A stretch of DNA of 64,000 nt. Origin: an uncultured Bacteroidales bacterium. GTDB taxonomy: Bacteria; Bacteroidota; Bacteroidia; Bacteroidales; Salinivirgaceae. Positions 4,195-12,097 of the stretch are shown one piece after another. The first letter of the stretch is position 1, and the number at the start of each line of letters is the position of its first letter. A program made the position numbers and the translations under genes. The stretch is taken from assembly GCA_964413185.1 (NCBI GenBank), contig CAYPSX010000001.1, positions 2,883 through 66,882 of the forward strand, read 5' to 3'. The notes under the pieces are model-generated. The model had not been told where the DNA came from. It searched no databases and worked only from the letters and a program-made list of their open reading frames with translations.

Positions 4195-5205
4195 TCATTC
4201 AAACACAACAAACACTGGAAAGTGGTCGGAATAACCCCACAAATAGAGCGTGCCTGCATGTGTACGTAACGGGTGATCTTTATATTTGCCCTTTTTTACG
4301 CGAATGTGCTCATCATCATACAAAATTGACTTTTTGAATGAAAGGCCTTTTTCGTCTAACAGCGGTTTGGAAATCAGAATTTGATCGAAAACATACCATG
4401 TGTCCCGATAACAGAGTGTGCCCTTTTTATTCGGGTTCAATTTGTTGGCCAATGGGTTGTAGTAAGTATAATCATCTAAATTCTCTTTGTTTCCTGTGGC
4501 TTTCATAACTTCTGTGATACTTCTGTTGGCCGGATTGTCGTTAAAATCGCCCATGATGATGAGGTTGGCATCTTTTTCGGCTTTTTTTACTGAATCGGCA
4601 ATGTGTTTACACAATTTAGCTGCAGCAATTCGTCGCGGTTCACTTTTTTCCGGTCCGCCACGGCGCGATGGCCAATGGTTTACGATAATATGAACTTTTT
4701 CGCCATTCAGTTTTCCTGATACGAGTAGTTGATCGCGTGTATGATAATCCTCGCCGGGAAAATGAAGTGTATAGGTTGCTGAATTGATAACCTCAAAAAA
4801 ATCTTTTCTGTAAAGCAGCGCGACATCAATTCCCCGATGATCGGGCGAATCGTAGTGCACAATATCGTACCCTGCCTGATCAATAGGTTTGGTTTGGATG
4901 AGATCTTCGAGAACGCGGCGGTTTTCAACTTCGCAAACACCGAGAATAGCCGGACCGTGTTGTTTTTCATCGCCATCGAGTTTGTCGATTACGTAGGCAA
5001 GATTATTGAGTTTTCGCCCATAGCGTTCAGAGTTCCAAATTTTGCCGCCTCCGGGAGTCCAGGCAAAATCGCCGGGCATATCGGAATCCAGCGTATCAAA
5101 TAAATTCTCAAGGTTGTAAAATGCCACTGAATATGACTGTTTTTCCTGGGCATAAACCAGACCGGAAAATAGTAAAATTGTTAAAATTATAGATATTCGC
5201 TTCAT
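4195..5205 (-). CDS. Exported endonuclease/exonuclease/phosphatase (EEP) family protein
   Basis: Signal peptide; AFYNLENLFD, GVCEVEN, NHWPSR, IMGDFND, FDQILIS and YSDHFPV motifs. Confidence 0.88.
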   Translation of the reverse strand: MKRISIILTILLFSGLVYAQEKQSYSVAFYNLENLFDTLDSDMPGDFAWTPGGGKIWNSERYGRKLNNLAYVIDKLDGDEKQHGPAILGVCEVENRRVLEDLIQTKPIDQAGYDIVHYDSPDHRGIDVALLYRKDFFEVINSATYTLHFPGEDYHTRDQLLVSGKLNGEKVHIIVNHWPSRRGGPEKSEPRRIAAAKLCKHIADSVKKAEKDANLIIMGDFNDNPANRSITEVMKATGNKENLDDYTYYNPLANKLNPNKKGTLCYRDTWYVFDQILISKPLLDEKGLSFKKSILYDDEHIRVKKGKYKDHPLRTHAGTLYLWGYSDHFPVFVVFE

Positions 5206-5257
5206 AATGGTATGTTTATCTGAGTTGTATTTAGTGTTTAAATAAATGAACTTTTTT

Positions 5258-8017
5258 TTAATGAGCTTCTAACCAATCTTGCCCGGTCTTTATATCGACT
5301 TTCATTTTTACGTTAAGTGAAATTGCATTTTGCATTGATTCTAATACAATTGCCTTCACTTTTTCTTCTTCATCTTTATGCGTATCGACAATCACCTCAT
5401 CATGCACCTGCATAATCATGCGGCTTTTCAGGTTTTCTTCCCGCAGTTTTTCATGGATTTTTACCATAGCCACTTTTATCATGTCTGCCGATGAGCCCTG
5501 AATAGGTGCGTTAATGGCATTTCGCTCTGCAGCGCCCCTCACCGTTCGGTTGGCAGAATTGATATCGGGCAAAAAGCGTTTGCGACCCATGATGGTTTCT
5601 GCGTAGCCTTTTTCTTTTGCTTTTGAAATGCTTTCATCCATATATTCTTTTACTTGCGGATATGTTTCAAAATAACTGTCGATCAGTTTTTTGGCTTCTT
5701 TGTTCGAAATTCCCGTATTCTGCGATAAGCCGTAGGCTGAAATGCCGTAAATGATGCCAAAATTAACGCCTTTGGCTTGGCCTCGCTGTTCGCGGGTAAC
5801 ATCTTCGGGTTTTACACCAAAAAGTTTTGAAGCGGTCATTTGGTGAATGTCCTCATCGTTTTCAAAAGCATCGAGCATGGCTTTATCCTGACTTAAATGG
5901 GCCATAATTCGAAGTTCAATTTGGCTGTAATCGGCTGCCAGCAGCACATGATCATCATCGCCGGGAATAAATGCTTTGCGAATAATTTTACCTTTTTCGT
6001 CGCGAATGGGAATATTTTGCAAATTTGGATTGGTGCTACTCAGCCGGCCTGTACTGGTAACGGCCTGGTTGTATGATGTGTGTATGCGTCCGGTTTTATT
6101 GTTGACCAGTTTAGGTAGTGCCTCAACATAAGTATTTAGAAGTTTACTCAAGCCGCGAAATTCAAGTATTGCCGGAATAATTTCATGTTTGTCGGCCAGT
6201 TTTTCGAGCACTTCTTCGCCTGTAGCGTATTGTTTTGTTTTGGTGCGCTTGGGTTTATCCGTAACTTTTAATTTTTCGAAAAGCACTTCGCCAAGTTGTT
6301 TCGGAGATGCAATATTAAATTCGGTTCCGGCGATCTTATGAATTTGCCCTTCAAGCTTAATGAGTTCTTTCCTAAGTTCTTCAGCAATTTCATTTAAAGC
6401 TTCACTGTCGATTGTAACGCCATAGTATTCCATATCAGCCAAAACCATGCAAAGCGGCATTTCTACTTCGGTAAAAAGCTTTTCAAGATCGAACTTTTTG
6501 AGTTTTTCTTCGAGCAGTGGTTTAAGTTGCCATGTAATATCTGCATCTTCGCAAGCATAATCTTTTACTTTTTCAGGATTCAGTTGCGCCATGCTCATTT
6601 GATTTTTACCTTTTTTCCCGATGATTTCCTCTGTGGAAATTTTTCGGTAATTCAAATAGCTTTTGGCTATTGCATCAATGTTGTGGGCTAGCTCGGGTTG
6701 AATTAGATAATGCGCCAACATGGTATCGAAAAGATTCGTGCGAATATCCACATCATACCGGCGCATCACTAACATATCGTATTTAATATTTTGTGCGACA
6801 ATTAATTTGGAATCGTCTTCAAGTATTGGTTTAAATAGTTTAATAATATCACCTAATTCCTGCTCGTTATTTTTTACGCTCACATAAAAAGCTTTGCGTT
6901 TTTCCCAGGCAAACGACATACCCACAAGTTCAGCTTGCAGCGGCTTGGCAGAGGTTGTTTCAGTGTCGAAAGCAAATGCTTTCTGTTTTTTTAGTTCTTC
7001 GGCCAATTTCTCACACTCGTCTTTGGTGGTGAGTAGTTTATAATCTACATCCACTTTGTCGAACGATTCAAAATTATCTTCAGGTTCCTCATCTTTTTCT
7101 GCAGCACCGAAAAGTGTACCCTGGGCTCCAACTGCTTCAGCTTTATCGGGGAAAATGCGCTTTTTAACGTTGCGAAACTCCAATTCATTCAATAATTCTT
7201 CCAGCTTTTCTTCATTGGGGTCTTTACGTTCCAAATCGCTGTAATCCTGGTCAATGGGAACATCAACATTAATCGTCACCAATTTTTTGGAAAGATATAC
7301 CTGGTCTTTATTTTCTACGAGTTTCTCTTTTTGTTTTCCTTTCAGGTCGTCGATATTTTCGTACAATCCCTCGACTGTACCATATTTTGCAACTAATTTC
7401 CTTGCAGTTTTTTCGCCAATGCCCGGGGCGCCCGGTATATTGTCAGAAGTATCGCCCCATAGCGCCAAAATATCTATAACCTGCTCAGGATTATCTATTC
7501 CATATTTACTTGTAATTTCTTCAACGCCCAAAATATCAATTCCCTGACCGAAACGTTTGGGTTTATACATTTTGATATTCTCACTTACAAGCTGGCCATA
7601 ATCTTTATCAGGTGTCATCATAAATACCTCTACGCCATTATTTTCTAAACGTTTGGCTAAAGTGCCGATTACATCATCAGCTTCATATCCTTTTTGCTCG
7701 ATGAGGGGAATATTCATGGCTTCGATGAGTTTGCGGATATACGGAATATTTATCCGGATATCTTCGGGCATCTCTTCCCGTGTGGCTTTATATTCTTTGT
7801 ACATTTCGTGCCTGAATGTGGGGGCACTTACATCGAAAACTACGGCCACATGGTCGGGATTTTCGTTTTTGAGCAATTCAAGCAAAATATTCATAAACCC
7901 GAACGAAGCGGAAGTATTCATTCCTTTGCTGTTAATTCGCGGGTTTTTAATAAATGCGAAATATGATCTATAAATCAACGCATAAGCATCGAGTAGGAAA
8001 AGCTTTGGTTTAGACAT
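5258..8017 (-). CDS. polA: DNA polymerase I
   Basis: 5'-3' exonuclease (LLDAYALIYR), 3'-5' exonuclease (FDTETT), motif A (ADYSQIELR), motif B (AKGVNFGIIYG) and motif C (QVHDE). Confidence 0.98.
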   Translation of the reverse strand: MSKPKLFLLDAYALIYRSYFAFIKNPRINSKGMNTSASFGFMNILLELLKNENPDHVAVVFDVSAPTFRHEMYKEYKATREEMPEDIRINIPYIRKLIEAMNIPLIEQKGYEADDVIGTLAKRLENNGVEVFMMTPDKDYGQLVSENIKMYKPKRFGQGIDILGVEEITSKYGIDNPEQVIDILALWGDTSDNIPGAPGIGEKTARKLVAKYGTVEGLYENIDDLKGKQKEKLVENKDQVYLSKKLVTINVDVPIDQDYSDLERKDPNEEKLEELLNELEFRNVKKRIFPDKAEAVGAQGTLFGAAEKDEEPEDNFESFDKVDVDYKLLTTKDECEKLAEELKKQKAFAFDTETTSAKPLQAELVGMSFAWEKRKAFYVSVKNNEQELGDIIKLFKPILEDDSKLIVAQNIKYDMLVMRRYDVDIRTNLFDTMLAHYLIQPELAHNIDAIAKSYLNYRKISTEEIIGKKGKNQMSMAQLNPEKVKDYACEDADITWQLKPLLEEKLKKFDLEKLFTEVEMPLCMVLADMEYYGVTIDSEALNEIAEELRKELIKLEGQIHKIAGTEFNIASPKQLGEVLFEKLKVTDKPKRTKTKQYATGEEVLEKLADKHEIIPAILEFRGLSKLLNTYVEALPKLVNNKTGRIHTSYNQAVTSTGRLSSTNPNLQNIPIRDEKGKIIRKAFIPGDDDHVLLAADYSQIELRIMAHLSQDKAMLDAFENDEDIHQMTASKLFGVKPEDVTREQRGQAKGVNFGIIYGISAYGLSQNTGISNKEAKKLIDSYFETYPQVKEYMDESISKAKEKGYAETIMGRKRFLPDINSANRTVRGAAERNAINAPIQGSSADMIKVAMVKIHEKLREENLKSRMIMQVHDEVIVDTHKDEEEKVKAIVLESMQNAISLNVKMKVDIKTGQDWLEAH

Positions 8018-8483: not shown

Positions 8484-9170
8484 TTATTTATTTCTGGTAA
8501 GATCAATCAAGTAATGATATAATAAAACAGGGCTTTTTTGTAATACCCGGGGATGAGTGGAAGATAACTTTTCAACAAAAGGAAAAGTTTGATTTCCAGT
8601 CAGGATTTCTTCCTCGCCAGTCCAATCTATTGTTTCATCAGTATTATTTTGAGATAATTCTTTAATCCAATTATTTATTTTTCCAATCCATTCGTGAGAA
8701 CTTCTACTTTGAATGTATCCAAACATTCCACATACTTTAAGATGAGATGAATGGTGTCCCCTTTTGAACCGCTCAATACCACCGCGTATTCCGCAAACAT
8801 ACTCCTTATTATTTGATGATTCGGAAAATCGTTTAGCTTCGAATTCAATTATCGGTAATGGCTTATGAGTTCGAGACATTACAAAAACACCAATATCTGT
8901 CTCCTTTTCCGATTCTGGTTGGGTTGGATTTTTACTGAATCGAAAAGGGAAATAGCTTTCAGTTTCATTTTTACAAAGCTCAAAATGCATTATTAGTGTA
9001 TCACTTATGCGATTCTCCTTCTCTGAGTCTTTGGTTAATTGGTAGTAGCCGGGGAAATCAGAAATATATTTATCGATAAACGACAATATTATATCGACCT
9101 CGAAATTTGACTCTACACTCAAATCATTCGGTTTTGGGGACTGGTATGATGGTAAAGAATCTCTAAGCAT
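8484..9170 (-). CDS. Hypothetical protein with a PD-(D/E)xK-like nuclease motif, coupled to the methyltransferase
   Basis: ETDIGV...IIEFEAKR resembles D...E-x-K. The likely start is ATG 9170, which overlaps the MTase end by 8 nt. The functional call is an inference. Confidence 0.55.
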   Translation of the reverse strand: MLRDSLPSYQSPKPNDLSVESNFEVDIILSFIDKYISDFPGYYQLTKDSEKENRISDTLIMHFELCKNETESYFPFRFSKNPTQPESEKETDIGVFVMSRTHKPLPIIEFEAKRFSESSNNKEYVCGIRGGIERFKRGHHSSHLKVCGMFGYIQSRSSHEWIGKINNWIKELSQNNTDETIDWTGEEEILTGNQTFPFVEKLSSTHPRVLQKSPVLLYHYLIDLTRNK

Positions 9171-12063
9171 TATGATAACGGGATTTAATATAATCGGCAA
9201 AAGTTTCATCTGCATCCCTTAATGCAATAGATGGTAACCAATAACGTAATTGTTTGGGTTTGGCTAAAATAATTGAGTCGGGTCCATAAGCCATAATAAT
9301 GCGTTGTATATGTGTTTTTTGCTGATTTTCTTTGCGAGTTGGAATTGCTGCTGCAATATATTGCTCTAAATCAGCAGTTTTTTCTTGTTTAGGAACTAAT
9401 TTCTCAGAAGAATAATCAAAATGTAATGCGTAATATTTCCCGGCATCTATAATTTTAAATAGTTGGAATGATTTTTCTTTTTGGTAGATACTGTTGAGCG
9501 TTTTGCAGAAAAATTCATTGTACCTGTAGATTTCGTTTGCAGAAACGATCTTTTCCAAACTGTTTCCGGAACCAGAATTTAAGAAATAATCCATAGCGTC
9601 ATTTAAAATCACTTCTTCAGCCTCTGATAACTTCACATCATTAATATCTTCAGGGTAGGGAATGTTTAAAATATCTTCATCATATAAAGAGGTCGCTTTA
9701 ATTATCTTAACCCGACTACTTGTCGCTAATATAAAAAAACGCAGTAAAGTATCGTTAGACTTAATATACGCTTCTAATCTTTTTAGCTCATCAGAAGAGT
9801 CTATTGGCGAATGTATCGCCAGAATATCACTCTTAAAAACAAGATCTTTCCCAACATATTCAACTATTAGTTGATTTGGAGGTAAAATCTTTCTAATAAG
9901 TAAATGTGGCGCTTTAAAAATATTAGGATTGGTTCTTCTATGAAACTTCTCAATCGAACAACTTTCAACCAAATTGTAGTTTATTCCTTCTTCAGAAAAT
10001 GCACTTGTGGGGAGGTATGGCAGACCTGTAATGTAATCTAAATGTTTCCCTTTCTTGTTTTCAATAAATCCCTCACCTTTTATCCATCCCTCACCTTTTT
10101 TACTGTTTATAAAACTCCCTAGTCTACGTGCTTTGGATAATCGTTCCAGCAATTGTACCAACCTTCCTCCCCCCATTAAATTAGCCTTCCATACATAAGG
10201 ATTATTTATGACAGAATCTTTAGGAACAAAGTGAAAATCATAATGGTCAAATTCTAAAAAAAGCCTATTCGCATTTGAAAATGTTCTGTTTGCAACAAGA
10301 TGTAAAACATCTTTATTGTCAGGTAAGGCTTTTTGAATAAAAACAGCGGCTGTGGCTACAATTTTCCTACCCCAAAGCTTATCGGCCAGCTTTGTAAAAT
10401 CTATTACCTGTAACAAGTTATTTTGAGAAAACAATTCTTGCTTAAAGCGTTGGTCTTTTTGATAAAGGATAGGACCTGATGGTTGAATTAAACATAAAAC
10501 AGCGTCTTCTTTTAGTAATTTCAATGATTGAACAAGGAAGTGTAAGGCAGGATTTTCATCAGGAATATGTAATTTGCTTTCGTATCCAAATTTTTCTTTT
10601 AATTGTTTGAAATGTTTTTTTCTACTTGGCTCTTTGCCATTTACAGGAGGGAGGTTAAACGGCGGATTTCCAATCACTAAGTCGAAATCGGCCTTAGGGT
10701 TATCCGTTATGAAAGCAAAAAAATCGTGCGTAAGAATATTTTGACTTAAGTCGGGGAATTTCAATTTTTCCCAGGTTTGTGAATTTAAATCCACTTCATC
10801 TAAAACGGCTAATGCCAAACTAAAAACAGAAAGACGAACGGCATCCTGCTCAATATCAACACCATGGATGTTTTTTAATAAAAGTTTCTTTAATGTGGTT
10901 AATGATGGTTTAATAAGCTTTCCTGTTTTCTTCCATTGCTCGTACCGCCACCATTGTACAATGCGTTTGTAGGTTTTCACAAGAAATATTCCTGAACCGC
11001 AACTAATGTCAATTAATTTAAAATCATTCTTTGGTTGCTTTAATGGCATGCACTCGTCAACTAAAGTGCTAACAATCATTTCGGGCGTATATACAATATC
11101 TTTGCTGTCGGTAAGTAATTCTTCATAGACCGAGCTTATAACTTCGACCGGAAGGTGTGAAAAAGAGTATAACCGCCATAAAACATATTGATTGTTTTGA
11201 ATGTTACCATCTAGATAATCTGCTAAGTTATTGACTTCCGATTTCTGAATGGCTTCTCTTTCGGCTTCTTCATCCCATTTGAATATTTGCCCATTAAAAT
11301 CTTTTGATAGTTGGTCTAATAAATCAAGAATTTTTCCTTTACGTATTGTGTCGCAGAAATTTGAACATTGAAAATTTCTCTTAAAATATGTGCCTGCAAA
11401 ATATCCACTTGAACTTTTTTCATCCCTTTCCTCAAGGTACTTAACCAACAAACTCTGCACCAACAACTTTAGTGCAACATGCCTGTCTAAACCCGATTCC
11501 TTTTGAAAATCAGAAAAAACCTTTTTGATCCCTCTTATTAAGTCTCTGGCAGCTGATTCTTCAAACCGGAAATCCTTTTTATCGTGTTGCTCATCCCAAA
11601 ATACTCCGGTGTCAAAATCCTTCGCATTAAATTCTTTAATGGCAGCGCCGGTTTTAGTTAATATTTCTTTTGCATAGCTATTTTTTTCTTCTTTAGGTCT
11701 TTTTCTGGAGTCAAATATGCTTACTGAGGATTTCTCAATGATAAGATAAGCCGGAACCTGAAAACCATTCCACATTCGGATGTGAATTTCATTTTTCTTC
11801 TCATTTGTCAGTACATTATCAGTGTAGTCAAATAAATACAATTGAGGGACTGAAGCTCTGCCATCTTGAAAATGACGAAAATATACGGCGTCAGCTTTAA
11901 ATTTTGTTTTGGCGGTTTCTAATGCAAAAAGAATATTGGGAGTTGCTAAGTTTGGGTTGATGTTTTCGTAATCATTTGTCAACAGAATACCACTAGCCTC
12001 ATTATCTTTAATTAATGAGAAGTTTAAGTTAGCTATTTGGTGTTCAAATAATTGTGTCGACAT
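9163..12063 (-). CDS. N6-adenine DNA methyltransferase (gamma class, Type I/IIG-like), 966 aa
   Basis: SAM-binding DISCGSGIFL, HGVDIE and catalytic VIGNPPF; VYTPEMIV; C-terminal TRD-like region; long N-terminal domain. Confidence 0.88.
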   Translation of the reverse strand: MSTQLFEHQIANLNFSLIKDNEASGILLTNDYENINPNLATPNILFALETAKTKFKADAVYFRHFQDGRASVPQLYLFDYTDNVLTNEKKNEIHIRMWNGFQVPAYLIIEKSSVSIFDSRKRPKEEKNSYAKEILTKTGAAIKEFNAKDFDTGVFWDEQHDKKDFRFEESAARDLIRGIKKVFSDFQKESGLDRHVALKLLVQSLLVKYLEERDEKSSSGYFAGTYFKRNFQCSNFCDTIRKGKILDLLDQLSKDFNGQIFKWDEEAEREAIQKSEVNNLADYLDGNIQNNQYVLWRLYSFSHLPVEVISSVYEELLTDSKDIVYTPEMIVSTLVDECMPLKQPKNDFKLIDISCGSGIFLVKTYKRIVQWWRYEQWKKTGKLIKPSLTTLKKLLLKNIHGVDIEQDAVRLSVFSLALAVLDEVDLNSQTWEKLKFPDLSQNILTHDFFAFITDNPKADFDLVIGNPPFNLPPVNGKEPSRKKHFKQLKEKFGYESKLHIPDENPALHFLVQSLKLLKEDAVLCLIQPSGPILYQKDQRFKQELFSQNNLLQVIDFTKLADKLWGRKIVATAAVFIQKALPDNKDVLHLVANRTFSNANRLFLEFDHYDFHFVPKDSVINNPYVWKANLMGGGRLVQLLERLSKARRLGSFINSKKGEGWIKGEGFIENKKGKHLDYITGLPYLPTSAFSEEGINYNLVESCSIEKFHRRTNPNIFKAPHLLIRKILPPNQLIVEYVGKDLVFKSDILAIHSPIDSSDELKRLEAYIKSNDTLLRFFILATSSRVKIIKATSLYDEDILNIPYPEDINDVKLSEAEEVILNDAMDYFLNSGSGNSLEKIVSANEIYRYNEFFCKTLNSIYQKEKSFQLFKIIDAGKYYALHFDYSSEKLVPKQEKTADLEQYIAAAIPTRKENQQKTHIQRIIMAYGPDSIILAKPKQLRYWLPSIALRDADETFADYIKSRYHNA

Positions 12064-12089
12064 ATTAACTATTCAGATAATCGTATTAA

Positions 12090-12097
12090 CAAAAATA
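12090..12097 (-). promoter_or_regulatory. Sigma-A -7 element (TATTTTTG) upstream of the MTase
   Basis: Matches TAnnTTTG, 27 nt upstream of the ATG. Confidence 0.55.

Follow-up and report, generated by a model that had tools for sequence, protein, structure and literature searches.

The window analysed here is a stretch of 64,000 nucleotides from an uncultured Bacteroidales bacterium of the Salinivirgaceae (contig CAYPSX010000001.1 of assembly GCA_964413185.1), and the element in question is a two-gene cassette that lies within it. The upstream gene encodes a large gamma-class N6-adenine DNA methyltransferase (MTase), and the downstream gene, which overlaps the end of the first, encodes a small protein. 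The cassette had been singled out by an earlier prediction, made from the sequence and its open reading frames (ORFs), which described an MTase of 966 amino acids with DISCGSG and NPPF motifs, a coupled protein of about 228 amino acids with the motifs ETDIGV...IEFEAKR and GGIERFKRG...GMFGYI, and the strings AVYFR, PQLYLFD, MWN and VPAYLII in the N-terminus of the MTase. All of these elements are present, and the prediction that the pair forms a split Type IIG-like restriction-modification (R-M) system is weighed here against the distribution, conservation and context of the two genes.

Both cassette genes are on the minus strand, and the positions of their features are given in window coordinates (Table 1). 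The longest frame of the small ORF extends over 8484..9215 (243 amino acids), and we placed the start of the gene at M16, at position 9170, because the homologues all begin with MLRDS or MLKDS; the length of 228 amino acids and the 8-nucleotide overlap of the original prediction follow from this conserved start. At the gene junction (CAT AAT GCT TAG) the small-gene ATG is at 9170-9168 and the MTase TAG at 9165-9163. The sequence AATGCTTAA/AATGCTTAG at this junction is kept in related loci, and the overlap in distant relatives is 4-11 nucleotides. The promoter motif TAnnTTTG occurs in the window at chance frequency (79 observed and 90 expected), but of the 19 related cassettes compared, which lie in unrelated genomic contexts, 13 have it at 34-42 nucleotides before the MTase start codon. 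This indicates that the promoter travels with the cassette, and from its recurrent position it appears to belong to the cassette, as had been predicted.

Table 1. Features of the two-gene cassette, with positions in window coordinates.
Feature	Position	Strand	Basis or remark
Promoter motif TAnnTTTG (TATTTTTG), Bacteroidota-type -7	12090..12097	-	34 nucleotides upstream of MTase ATG
Large subunit gene, 966-amino-acid gamma-class N6-adenine DNA MTase with built-in target recognition domain (TRD), Type IIG-like architecture	9163..12063	-	Pfam, PADLOC
MTase N-terminal alpha/beta domain (residues 1-130)	11674..12063	-	AlphaFold2 (AF2) model, homologue alignments
MTase catalytic domain (residues 310-640)	10144..11136	-	Motifs I and IV, Pfam
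Hypervariable region (residues 645-850), read as a single TRD	9514..10131	-	Column identity
Conserved MTase C-terminal domain (residues 851-966)	9166..9513	-	Column identity 0.77-0.83
8-nucleotide gene overlap ATGCTTAG, small-gene start and MTase stop	9163..9170	-	Translational coupling
Small subunit gene, 228 amino acids, predicted PD-(D/E)xK nuclease	8484..9170	-	E52...D92...E111-A-K113 signature and AF2 topology
Signature codons of the small protein	E52 9015-9017; D92 8895-8897; E111-A-K113 8832-8840	-	

The two genes are found together without exception in the genomes that could be assessed. Among public genomes we recovered 33 loci with the small protein, 32 of which include the upstream DNA, and in all 32 of these the MTase gene immediately precedes the small gene, and the overlap is the same. 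In a sample of 401 genomes from the phylum, the small protein is present in 13 genomes and an MTase similar to the PADLOC model PDLC03603 in 19. All 20 assessable MTase genes of this sample are immediately followed by an ORF of 206-248 amino acids that matches the hidden Markov model (HMM) of the small protein; one further MTase gene lies at a contig end and is outside the 20. The predicted pair thus co-occurs across genomes, and the pairing is obligate for the small gene as well as for the MTase. Clustering of all flanking ORFs in the 33 loci revealed no third shared gene. More distant small partners, at about 25% identity, are paired with MTases of about 1010 amino acids that are full-length members of PDLC03603 (E = 0). 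Since all of these longer MTases are paired, a model labelled as single-gene 'Type IIG' describes proteins that always carry a small partner. The pair occurs in Bacteroidota, Ignavibacteriota, Chlorobiales and KSB1, and also on mobilizable and conjugative alphaproteobacterial plasmids, where the two genes are annotated as 'N-6 DNA methylase' and 'hypothetical protein'; no homologues were found in the phage collection.

A few loci depart from the simple arrangement of one intact pair per genome. The remaining one of the 33 loci, in a metagenome-assembled genome (MAG) of the Dysgonamonadaceae, carries only a fragment of the small protein (L034:3833-4192; residues 29-148, 63% identity) with no MTase match, and this is probably the remnant of a decayed cassette. 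In a MAG assigned to Draconibacterium (OY781971.1; L002:5018-8008), the MTase homologue is present as two ORFs (5018-6001 and 6098-8008) next to an intact small gene, and the split reflects either a pseudogene or an error of the long-read assembly. Two genomes carry two copies each: those of G187 (loci L037 and L054) fall into different clades, one with the window's pair and one with the distant PDLC03603 members, and those of G087 (loci L049 and L123) are both remote from the window's pair. A contig of 1868 nucleotides in a MAG labelled 'Candidatus Woesearchaeota archaeon' (L013; CAZROF010000057.1) also carries the bacterial pair, at 72% identity, and this archaeal assignment is more likely to be a binning artefact than a case of archaeal carriage.

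The large subunit has the sequence features of an active MTase. Its motif I (DISCGSGIF, 10984-11010) is followed by motif IV (NPPF, 10657-10668), and both are invariant in an alignment of 20 homologues with 59-78% identity. The Pfam families Eco57I (E = 1.6e-16) and N6_Mtase (E = 2.7e-14) match above their cut-offs and MmeI_Mtase just below it, and a sequence search of the PDB with the MTase gave no match. The PADLOC search suggested along with the original prediction gave a divided answer: no model matches the small protein, but the MTase matches REase_MTase_IIG (PDLC03603) as its best model (E = 1.1e-32, residues 88-787). Across the 20 homologues, conservation is high at residues 1-640 and 851-966, and the mean column identity is 0.48-0.58 in residues 645-850 compared with 0.74-0.91 elsewhere in the protein. 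This hypervariable block is single, about 200 amino acids long and C-terminal to the MTase domain. Its pairwise identity ranges from 0.26 to 0.98 and is uncoupled from the identity of the MTase core; genes with 85-91% core identity can share just 27-32% in residues 645-850. In this alignment the block looks like a swappable TRD, in agreement with the TRD-like C-terminus that had been predicted.

The N-terminal domain of the MTase shows a different pattern of conservation in near and distant relatives. Members of the close clade retain D79 and E110-(K/Q)-S112 fairly well. In the wider family, including the alphaproteobacterial plasmid copies, the positions of D79 and E110 are occupied by N, K, V, Y, S, Q or R, and the domain has no acidic or lysine residue that is conserved across that family. 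A 'WN...P' element persists, together with hydrophobic residues at some positions and a few glycines, prolines and tryptophans. The original prediction had seen no clear D...E-x-K motif in this domain, and the family alignment agrees with it. The AF2 model of residues 1-310, with a predicted local distance difference test (pLDDT) score of 76, consists of an alpha/beta domain (1-125; pLDDT about 80), a disordered linker and a helical connector. There is no Pfam match to MmeI_N or BpuSI_N in the MTase, and hhalign gave a probability of 0.3% for the N-terminal domain compared with an alignment of MmeI_N that we built from 20 Bacteroidota genes; members of BpuSI_N and PDLC03623, sought in the phylum for further comparison profiles, were not found. 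Judged by its residue conservation, the N-terminal domain is not a conserved catalytic nuclease.

The residues expected of a nuclease are instead conserved in the small protein. It has 414 close homologues at 63-80% identity, all of them annotated as 'hypothetical', and a profile search (E <= 1e-3) expands the family to 724 clusters at 50% identity, nearly all with lengths of 205-250 amino acids. In a set of 50 diverse members that are 24-49% identical to the query, the residues E52, D92, E111, K113, Y124, R134, H140, W161 and W183 are invariant, and very few of the most remote members that were aligned lack the set of E, D and E-x-K. The AF2 model of the protein (pLDDT 83, predicted template modelling score 0.82) has, in order, a helix (49-69), strands at 76-79, 93-97 and 106-115, helices, and a strand at 146-153. 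E52 lies in the helix, D92 just ahead of strand 93-97, and E111 and K113 inside strand 106-115. In the model, this order of elements corresponds to that of the canonical PD-(D/E)xK core, and the small protein is predicted to be a nuclease of the PD-(D/E)xK type. Neither the single sequence nor the 50-member profile matched anything in Pfam, NCBIfam, PADLOC, PHROGs or the PDB sequences, and one of the 50 members gave BpuSI_N at E = 0.07, which is at the level of chance.

To describe how the two subunits evolve relative to each other, we compared pairwise identities of the small protein with those of the MTase regions over 190 locus pairs (Spearman correlation). The identity of the small protein follows that of the MTase core (rho = 0.89) and of the conserved C-terminal domain (rho = 0.83) but not that of the TRD (rho = 0.07), and regression of small-protein identity on that of the TRD gives a coefficient of 0.04. 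When the small protein is divided into six sub-regions, none of them follows the TRD. At the sequence level, these correlations argue for a single recognition module common to both subunits, and with no co-variation with the TRD, the small protein would most likely rely on the large subunit for the selection of its target.

The cassette is an insertion into a conserved gene order. In the window it is surrounded by genes that we named by eye as polA, queD-like, ThiF/TcdA-like, tatD, an aminotransferase and recO. In a complete genome of the same genus the order is aminotransferase, tatD, tcdA-like, queD-like and polA, the cassette is absent, and the tcdA-like and queD-like genes are about 100 nucleotides apart. 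Because these two genes are adjacent in that genome, the two-gene cassette of about 3.8 kb represents an insertion into conserved synteny, which bears out the statement that it interrupts housekeeping genes. The composition had been judged by eye as richer in AT than the flanks, and the difference is real but modest: the GC fraction is 0.33-0.36 over 8.5-12.5 kb compared with 0.385-0.42 in the flanks, a decrease of 4-6 GC points. Near the cassette there are no hsdR, hsdS, BREX or DISARM genes, as had also been noted. Elsewhere, the flanks are different at every locus, the distribution is patchy (about 3-5% of genomes), and some copies adjoin conjugative PRTRC genes or other defence genes. The GC dip, the empty site, the patchy distribution and the varied flanks point to a horizontally mobile cassette.

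Some of the flanks deserve description in their own right. In the window, the TAA of the small gene (8486-8484) is 2 nucleotides from the ATG of the queD-like gene (8481-8479), and the cassette may drive, or read through into, that gene. In several Flavobacteriaceae genomes and marine metagenomes (loci L124-L131, for example L125 = JQNJ01000001.1:2932104-2942790), an identical small protein accompanies an MTase of 977 amino acids, and these pairs adjoin PRTRC-type genes (ThiF, Prok-E2_D, Prok_Ub and PRTRC_E) and a DDE transposase, which suggests a conjugative or integrative element. On plasmid pBCL1 of Labrenzia sp. CP4 (L134:1-2185), a radical SAM protein, a 3'-5' exonuclease and an AAA ATPase are annotated upstream of the pair, with a thermonuclease and tra genes downstream, and the cluster may be defence-like. 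In genome G239, an ORF of 939 amino acids about 2.8 kb downstream of one copy of the system (L118:958-3777) has an N-terminus similar to MmeI_N (E = 2.4e-22) that is without the D...ExK residues in the alignment; it may be another nuclease-dead MmeI-like protein of the same island.

We consider it likely that the cassette is a self-contained, mobile two-gene R-M system in which a Type IIG-like enzyme is split over two polypeptides. This reading is based on the gene structure, the obligate pairing, the residue conservation, the variability of the TRD, the lack of co-variation with the TRD and the insertion into synteny; the exceptionless pairing, the N-terminus without catalytic residues and the uncoupling from the TRD in particular favour the split that the original prediction had proposed. 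Each computational check that had been offered with that prediction as a possible refutation was carried out, and the split survived all of them. In the mechanism that we envisage, the large subunit would carry the sole DNA-recognition module of the system, a single exchangeable TRD that would read an asymmetric site, and its active-looking gamma-class N6-adenine MTase would mark these sites in the DNA of the host. Docking of the small subunit would fall to the N-terminal domain of the MTase, to its conserved C-terminal domain or to both. The small subunit, to judge from its motif and predicted topology, would be a sequence-nonspecific nuclease of the PD-(D/E)xK type with E52, D92, E111 and K113 as catalytic residues, and it would supply the only catalytic nuclease centre in the system; to cut foreign, unmethylated DNA it would first have to be placed near an unmodified site by the large subunit. 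The cassette-borne promoter would drive both genes, and the 8-nucleotide overlap would couple their translation, so that synthesis of the nuclease always follows that of the methylase.

Several points weigh against this reading. Foldseek, suggested along with the original prediction as a check for a nuclease fold, gave no significant match for either domain. For the model of the small protein, searched against the PDB and BFVD, the best rows were E = 0.03 in the PDB (PTP1B, template modelling score 0.22) and E = 0.013 in BFVD; the rows also include UL24-type proteins at a probability below 0.1, which we judged to be as spurious as PTP1B. The hhalign comparison of the small family with the MmeI_N alignment gave a probability of 0.2%. 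We had considered that the small protein might be a detached MmeI-type nuclease domain, and we rejected this idea as unsupported, since hhalign shows no relationship to MmeI_N. With no match to a structure or profile, the assignment of the small protein as a nuclease rests on its motif and predicted topology; of the PD-(D/E)xK-like character originally predicted, the invariant E52, D92, E111 and K113 and the order of elements stand, but Foldseek and the profile comparison leave the fold unconfirmed. For the model of the MTase N-terminus, the top Foldseek row is the N-terminal region of EcoR124I HsdR (E = 0.4), followed by a few endonuclease-like folds with E of 4-7, and these rows are suggestive at most. 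Because this domain has no significant fold match, its description as a pseudo-nuclease docking domain is conjecture, and binding between the two proteins is likewise a proposal. We found no methylome, cleavage or phage data that could be linked to any member of the family. In the window, moreover, the cassette sits amid housekeeping genes and not in a defence island. Among 148 scanned ORFs that neighbour the cassettes, a small minority match PADLOC models, with one or two ORFs per family (PDC-S01, PDC-M19, Cas5e, RT_UG29, mad2/mad3 and BrxH), and this defence-island signal is too weak to count.

Four other explanations can be set against a split enzyme. The MTase could be a true Type IIG enzyme in a single chain and cut DNA through an unorthodox active site in its N-terminal domain, with the small protein as an accessory that might, for example, act as a nuclease on the second strand, regulate the enzyme or help in its assembly. 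The filing of the sister clade in PADLOC as full-length REase_MTase_IIG, the conservation of the N-terminal domain in the close clade, including D79 and E110, and the restriction-enzyme N-terminal regions among the weak top Foldseek rows are all in its favour. We nevertheless regard it as unlikely: the PADLOC label is inherited from the naming of the source models, the D79 and E110 columns vary through the wider family with no conserved lysine, and the invariant E-D-ExK set sits in the small protein instead. If the small protein were an independent endonuclease that recognises the sequence of the methylase by itself, the cassette would be a conventional Type II pair. A PD-(D/E)xK protein of about 230 amino acids beside an MTase is the commonest R-M layout, and its size is typical of Type IIP enzymes. 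Such an independent restriction enzyme is disfavoured because its specificity would need to change in step with the methylase, whereas the TRD is swapped among relatives (identity 0.26-0.98) while the small protein stays 64-88% identical and has no co-varying region. The large extra N- and C-terminal domains of the MTase would also be left unexplained, and we rate this explanation as quite unlikely.

A third explanation dispenses with site-directed cleavage. Methylation could mark self DNA in a defence that acts by BREX-like exclusion or by abortive infection, with the small nuclease as a toxin that is released or activated once the methylase senses unmodified DNA, or the pair could simply be an addiction cassette. 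The MTase does have weak similarity to the PglX and MAD2 methylases, translational coupling and mobility would suit a selfish addiction module, and the cleavage of a split enzyme is itself predicted. The scores against the NCBIfam models, however, are far under the cut-offs for PglX and MAD2, the partner genes of BREX and MADS are absent from the window and are not conserved across related loci, and directed cleavage is the simplest reading of a Type IIG-like architecture that combines a single TRD with a conserved nuclease partner, so that we hold this alternative to be improbable. Finally, the cassette could have no role in defence and encode an epigenetic or regulatory methylase with a nuclease partner of the repair or recombination type, as its place amid housekeeping genes, with a gap of 2 nucleotides to queD, might suggest. 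The patchy distribution, the spread across phyla and plasmids, the shuffling of the TRD and the empty site in the same genus are hallmarks of mobile R-M systems, and they make this explanation highly improbable.

Returning to the split Type IIG-like enzyme, we are evenly divided on a broader claim, namely that a widespread clade now filed as single-chain 'Type IIG' or 'N-6 DNA methylases' consists of obligate two-subunit enzymes, in which a PD-(D/E)xK nuclease without specificity of its own, from a family not named before, is licensed in trans via a dead N-terminal docking domain and the specificity is reset by exchange of the TRD with the nuclease left untouched. If the split model is right, a common and phylogenetically wide R-M architecture has been missed or mislabelled: the Prokaryotic Genome Annotation Pipeline (PGAP) calls the small partner 'hypothetical', and in PADLOC the sister clade of the large subunit would count as a complete Type IIG system of one gene. 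The annotation of defence and R-M systems would then gain from a name for the small family, and the system would explain barriers to the transformation of Bacteroidota. An enzyme that is naturally modular, in which one chain recognises and methylates and the other cleaves, would also be attractive for the construction of cutters or nickases with swapped TRDs.

The cassette can be compared with several classes of known systems. The partners that characterise Type I and Type III systems (HsdS and the helicase-nuclease HsdR or Res) are found neither in the flanks within the window nor as conserved genes in the 33 loci. PglX of BREX and MAD2 of MADS are, like the large subunit here, large gamma-class N6-adenine MTases with a TRD that mark self DNA, and they give weak HMM matches (20-36 bits against NCBIfam PglX models with cut-offs of 400-900, and 46.8 bits against MAD2 with a cut-off of 720). 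In contrast to those systems, the conserved unit consists of two genes, and the remaining BREX and MADS genes (PglZ, BrxC etc.) are neither nearby nor conserved. The resemblance to Type IIG and IIL enzymes such as MmeI, Eco57I, BpuSI and DrdV is closer, since these share an N-terminal domain, a helical connector, a gamma-class N6-adenine MTase, one TRD and a conserved C-terminal domain; exchange of the TRD changes their specificity, and the PADLOC models for Type IIG match the MTase here. However, the trait that defines Type IIG, a nuclease and an MTase in one chain, normally with an N-terminal PD-(D/E)xK motif, is absent from the cassette MTase, whose N-terminus lacks D...ExK and is not detectably similar to MmeI_N; what looks like the catalytic nuclease is a protein of its own, 228 amino acids long and coupled to the MTase in translation. 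In the heterodimeric Type IIS enzymes BspD6I/Nt.BspD6I, BtsI and BsrDI, a small nuclease subunit with no specificity of its own is positioned by a large recognising subunit. Their small catalytic subunit may be the nearest functional analogy to the small protein, although their large subunits are themselves nucleases and, unlike the cassette MTase, have no methyltransferase.

The 'split Type IIG' of Haloferax (HVO_A0006; PMC4389544) was considered as a precedent and rejected, as it is a fragment of a gene truncated by a transposon and differs from the cassette family. Separate peptides for the MTase/TRD and the endonuclease are known from the 'Type IIG-like' (IIG*) systems of Blow et al. 2016 (PMC4752239). 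The original prediction held that the pair matches no standard R-M layout; this stands with respect to Type I and III, BREX and MADS, but not with respect to IIG*, which offers a precedent, or to the sister clade that PADLOC lists as Type IIG. Like the cassette, IIG* systems combine an MmeI-like MTase/TRD that lacks the N-terminal endonuclease motif with an endonuclease on an adjacent peptide. Of the examples in that study, AchA6III has a fused PLD nuclease-translocase and OspHL35III a translocase and a GIY-YIG nuclease, whereas the cassette has no translocase or ATPase and its MTase is accompanied by a small protein of the PD-(D/E)xK type, from a family that lacks annotation. Lsp48III of Leeuwenhoekiella sp. 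Hel_I_48 is listed as an atypical IIG* enzyme with N6-methyladenine (m6A) in AGCACC (PMC4752239), and we considered it as a possible member of the cassette family. The obligate adjacency of the two genes and the presence of the catalytic signature only in the small protein place the cassette within IIG*, which is a descriptive class and not a sequence family. The principle of immunity would not itself be new, and the cassette would extend the known continuum of Type IIG-like systems.

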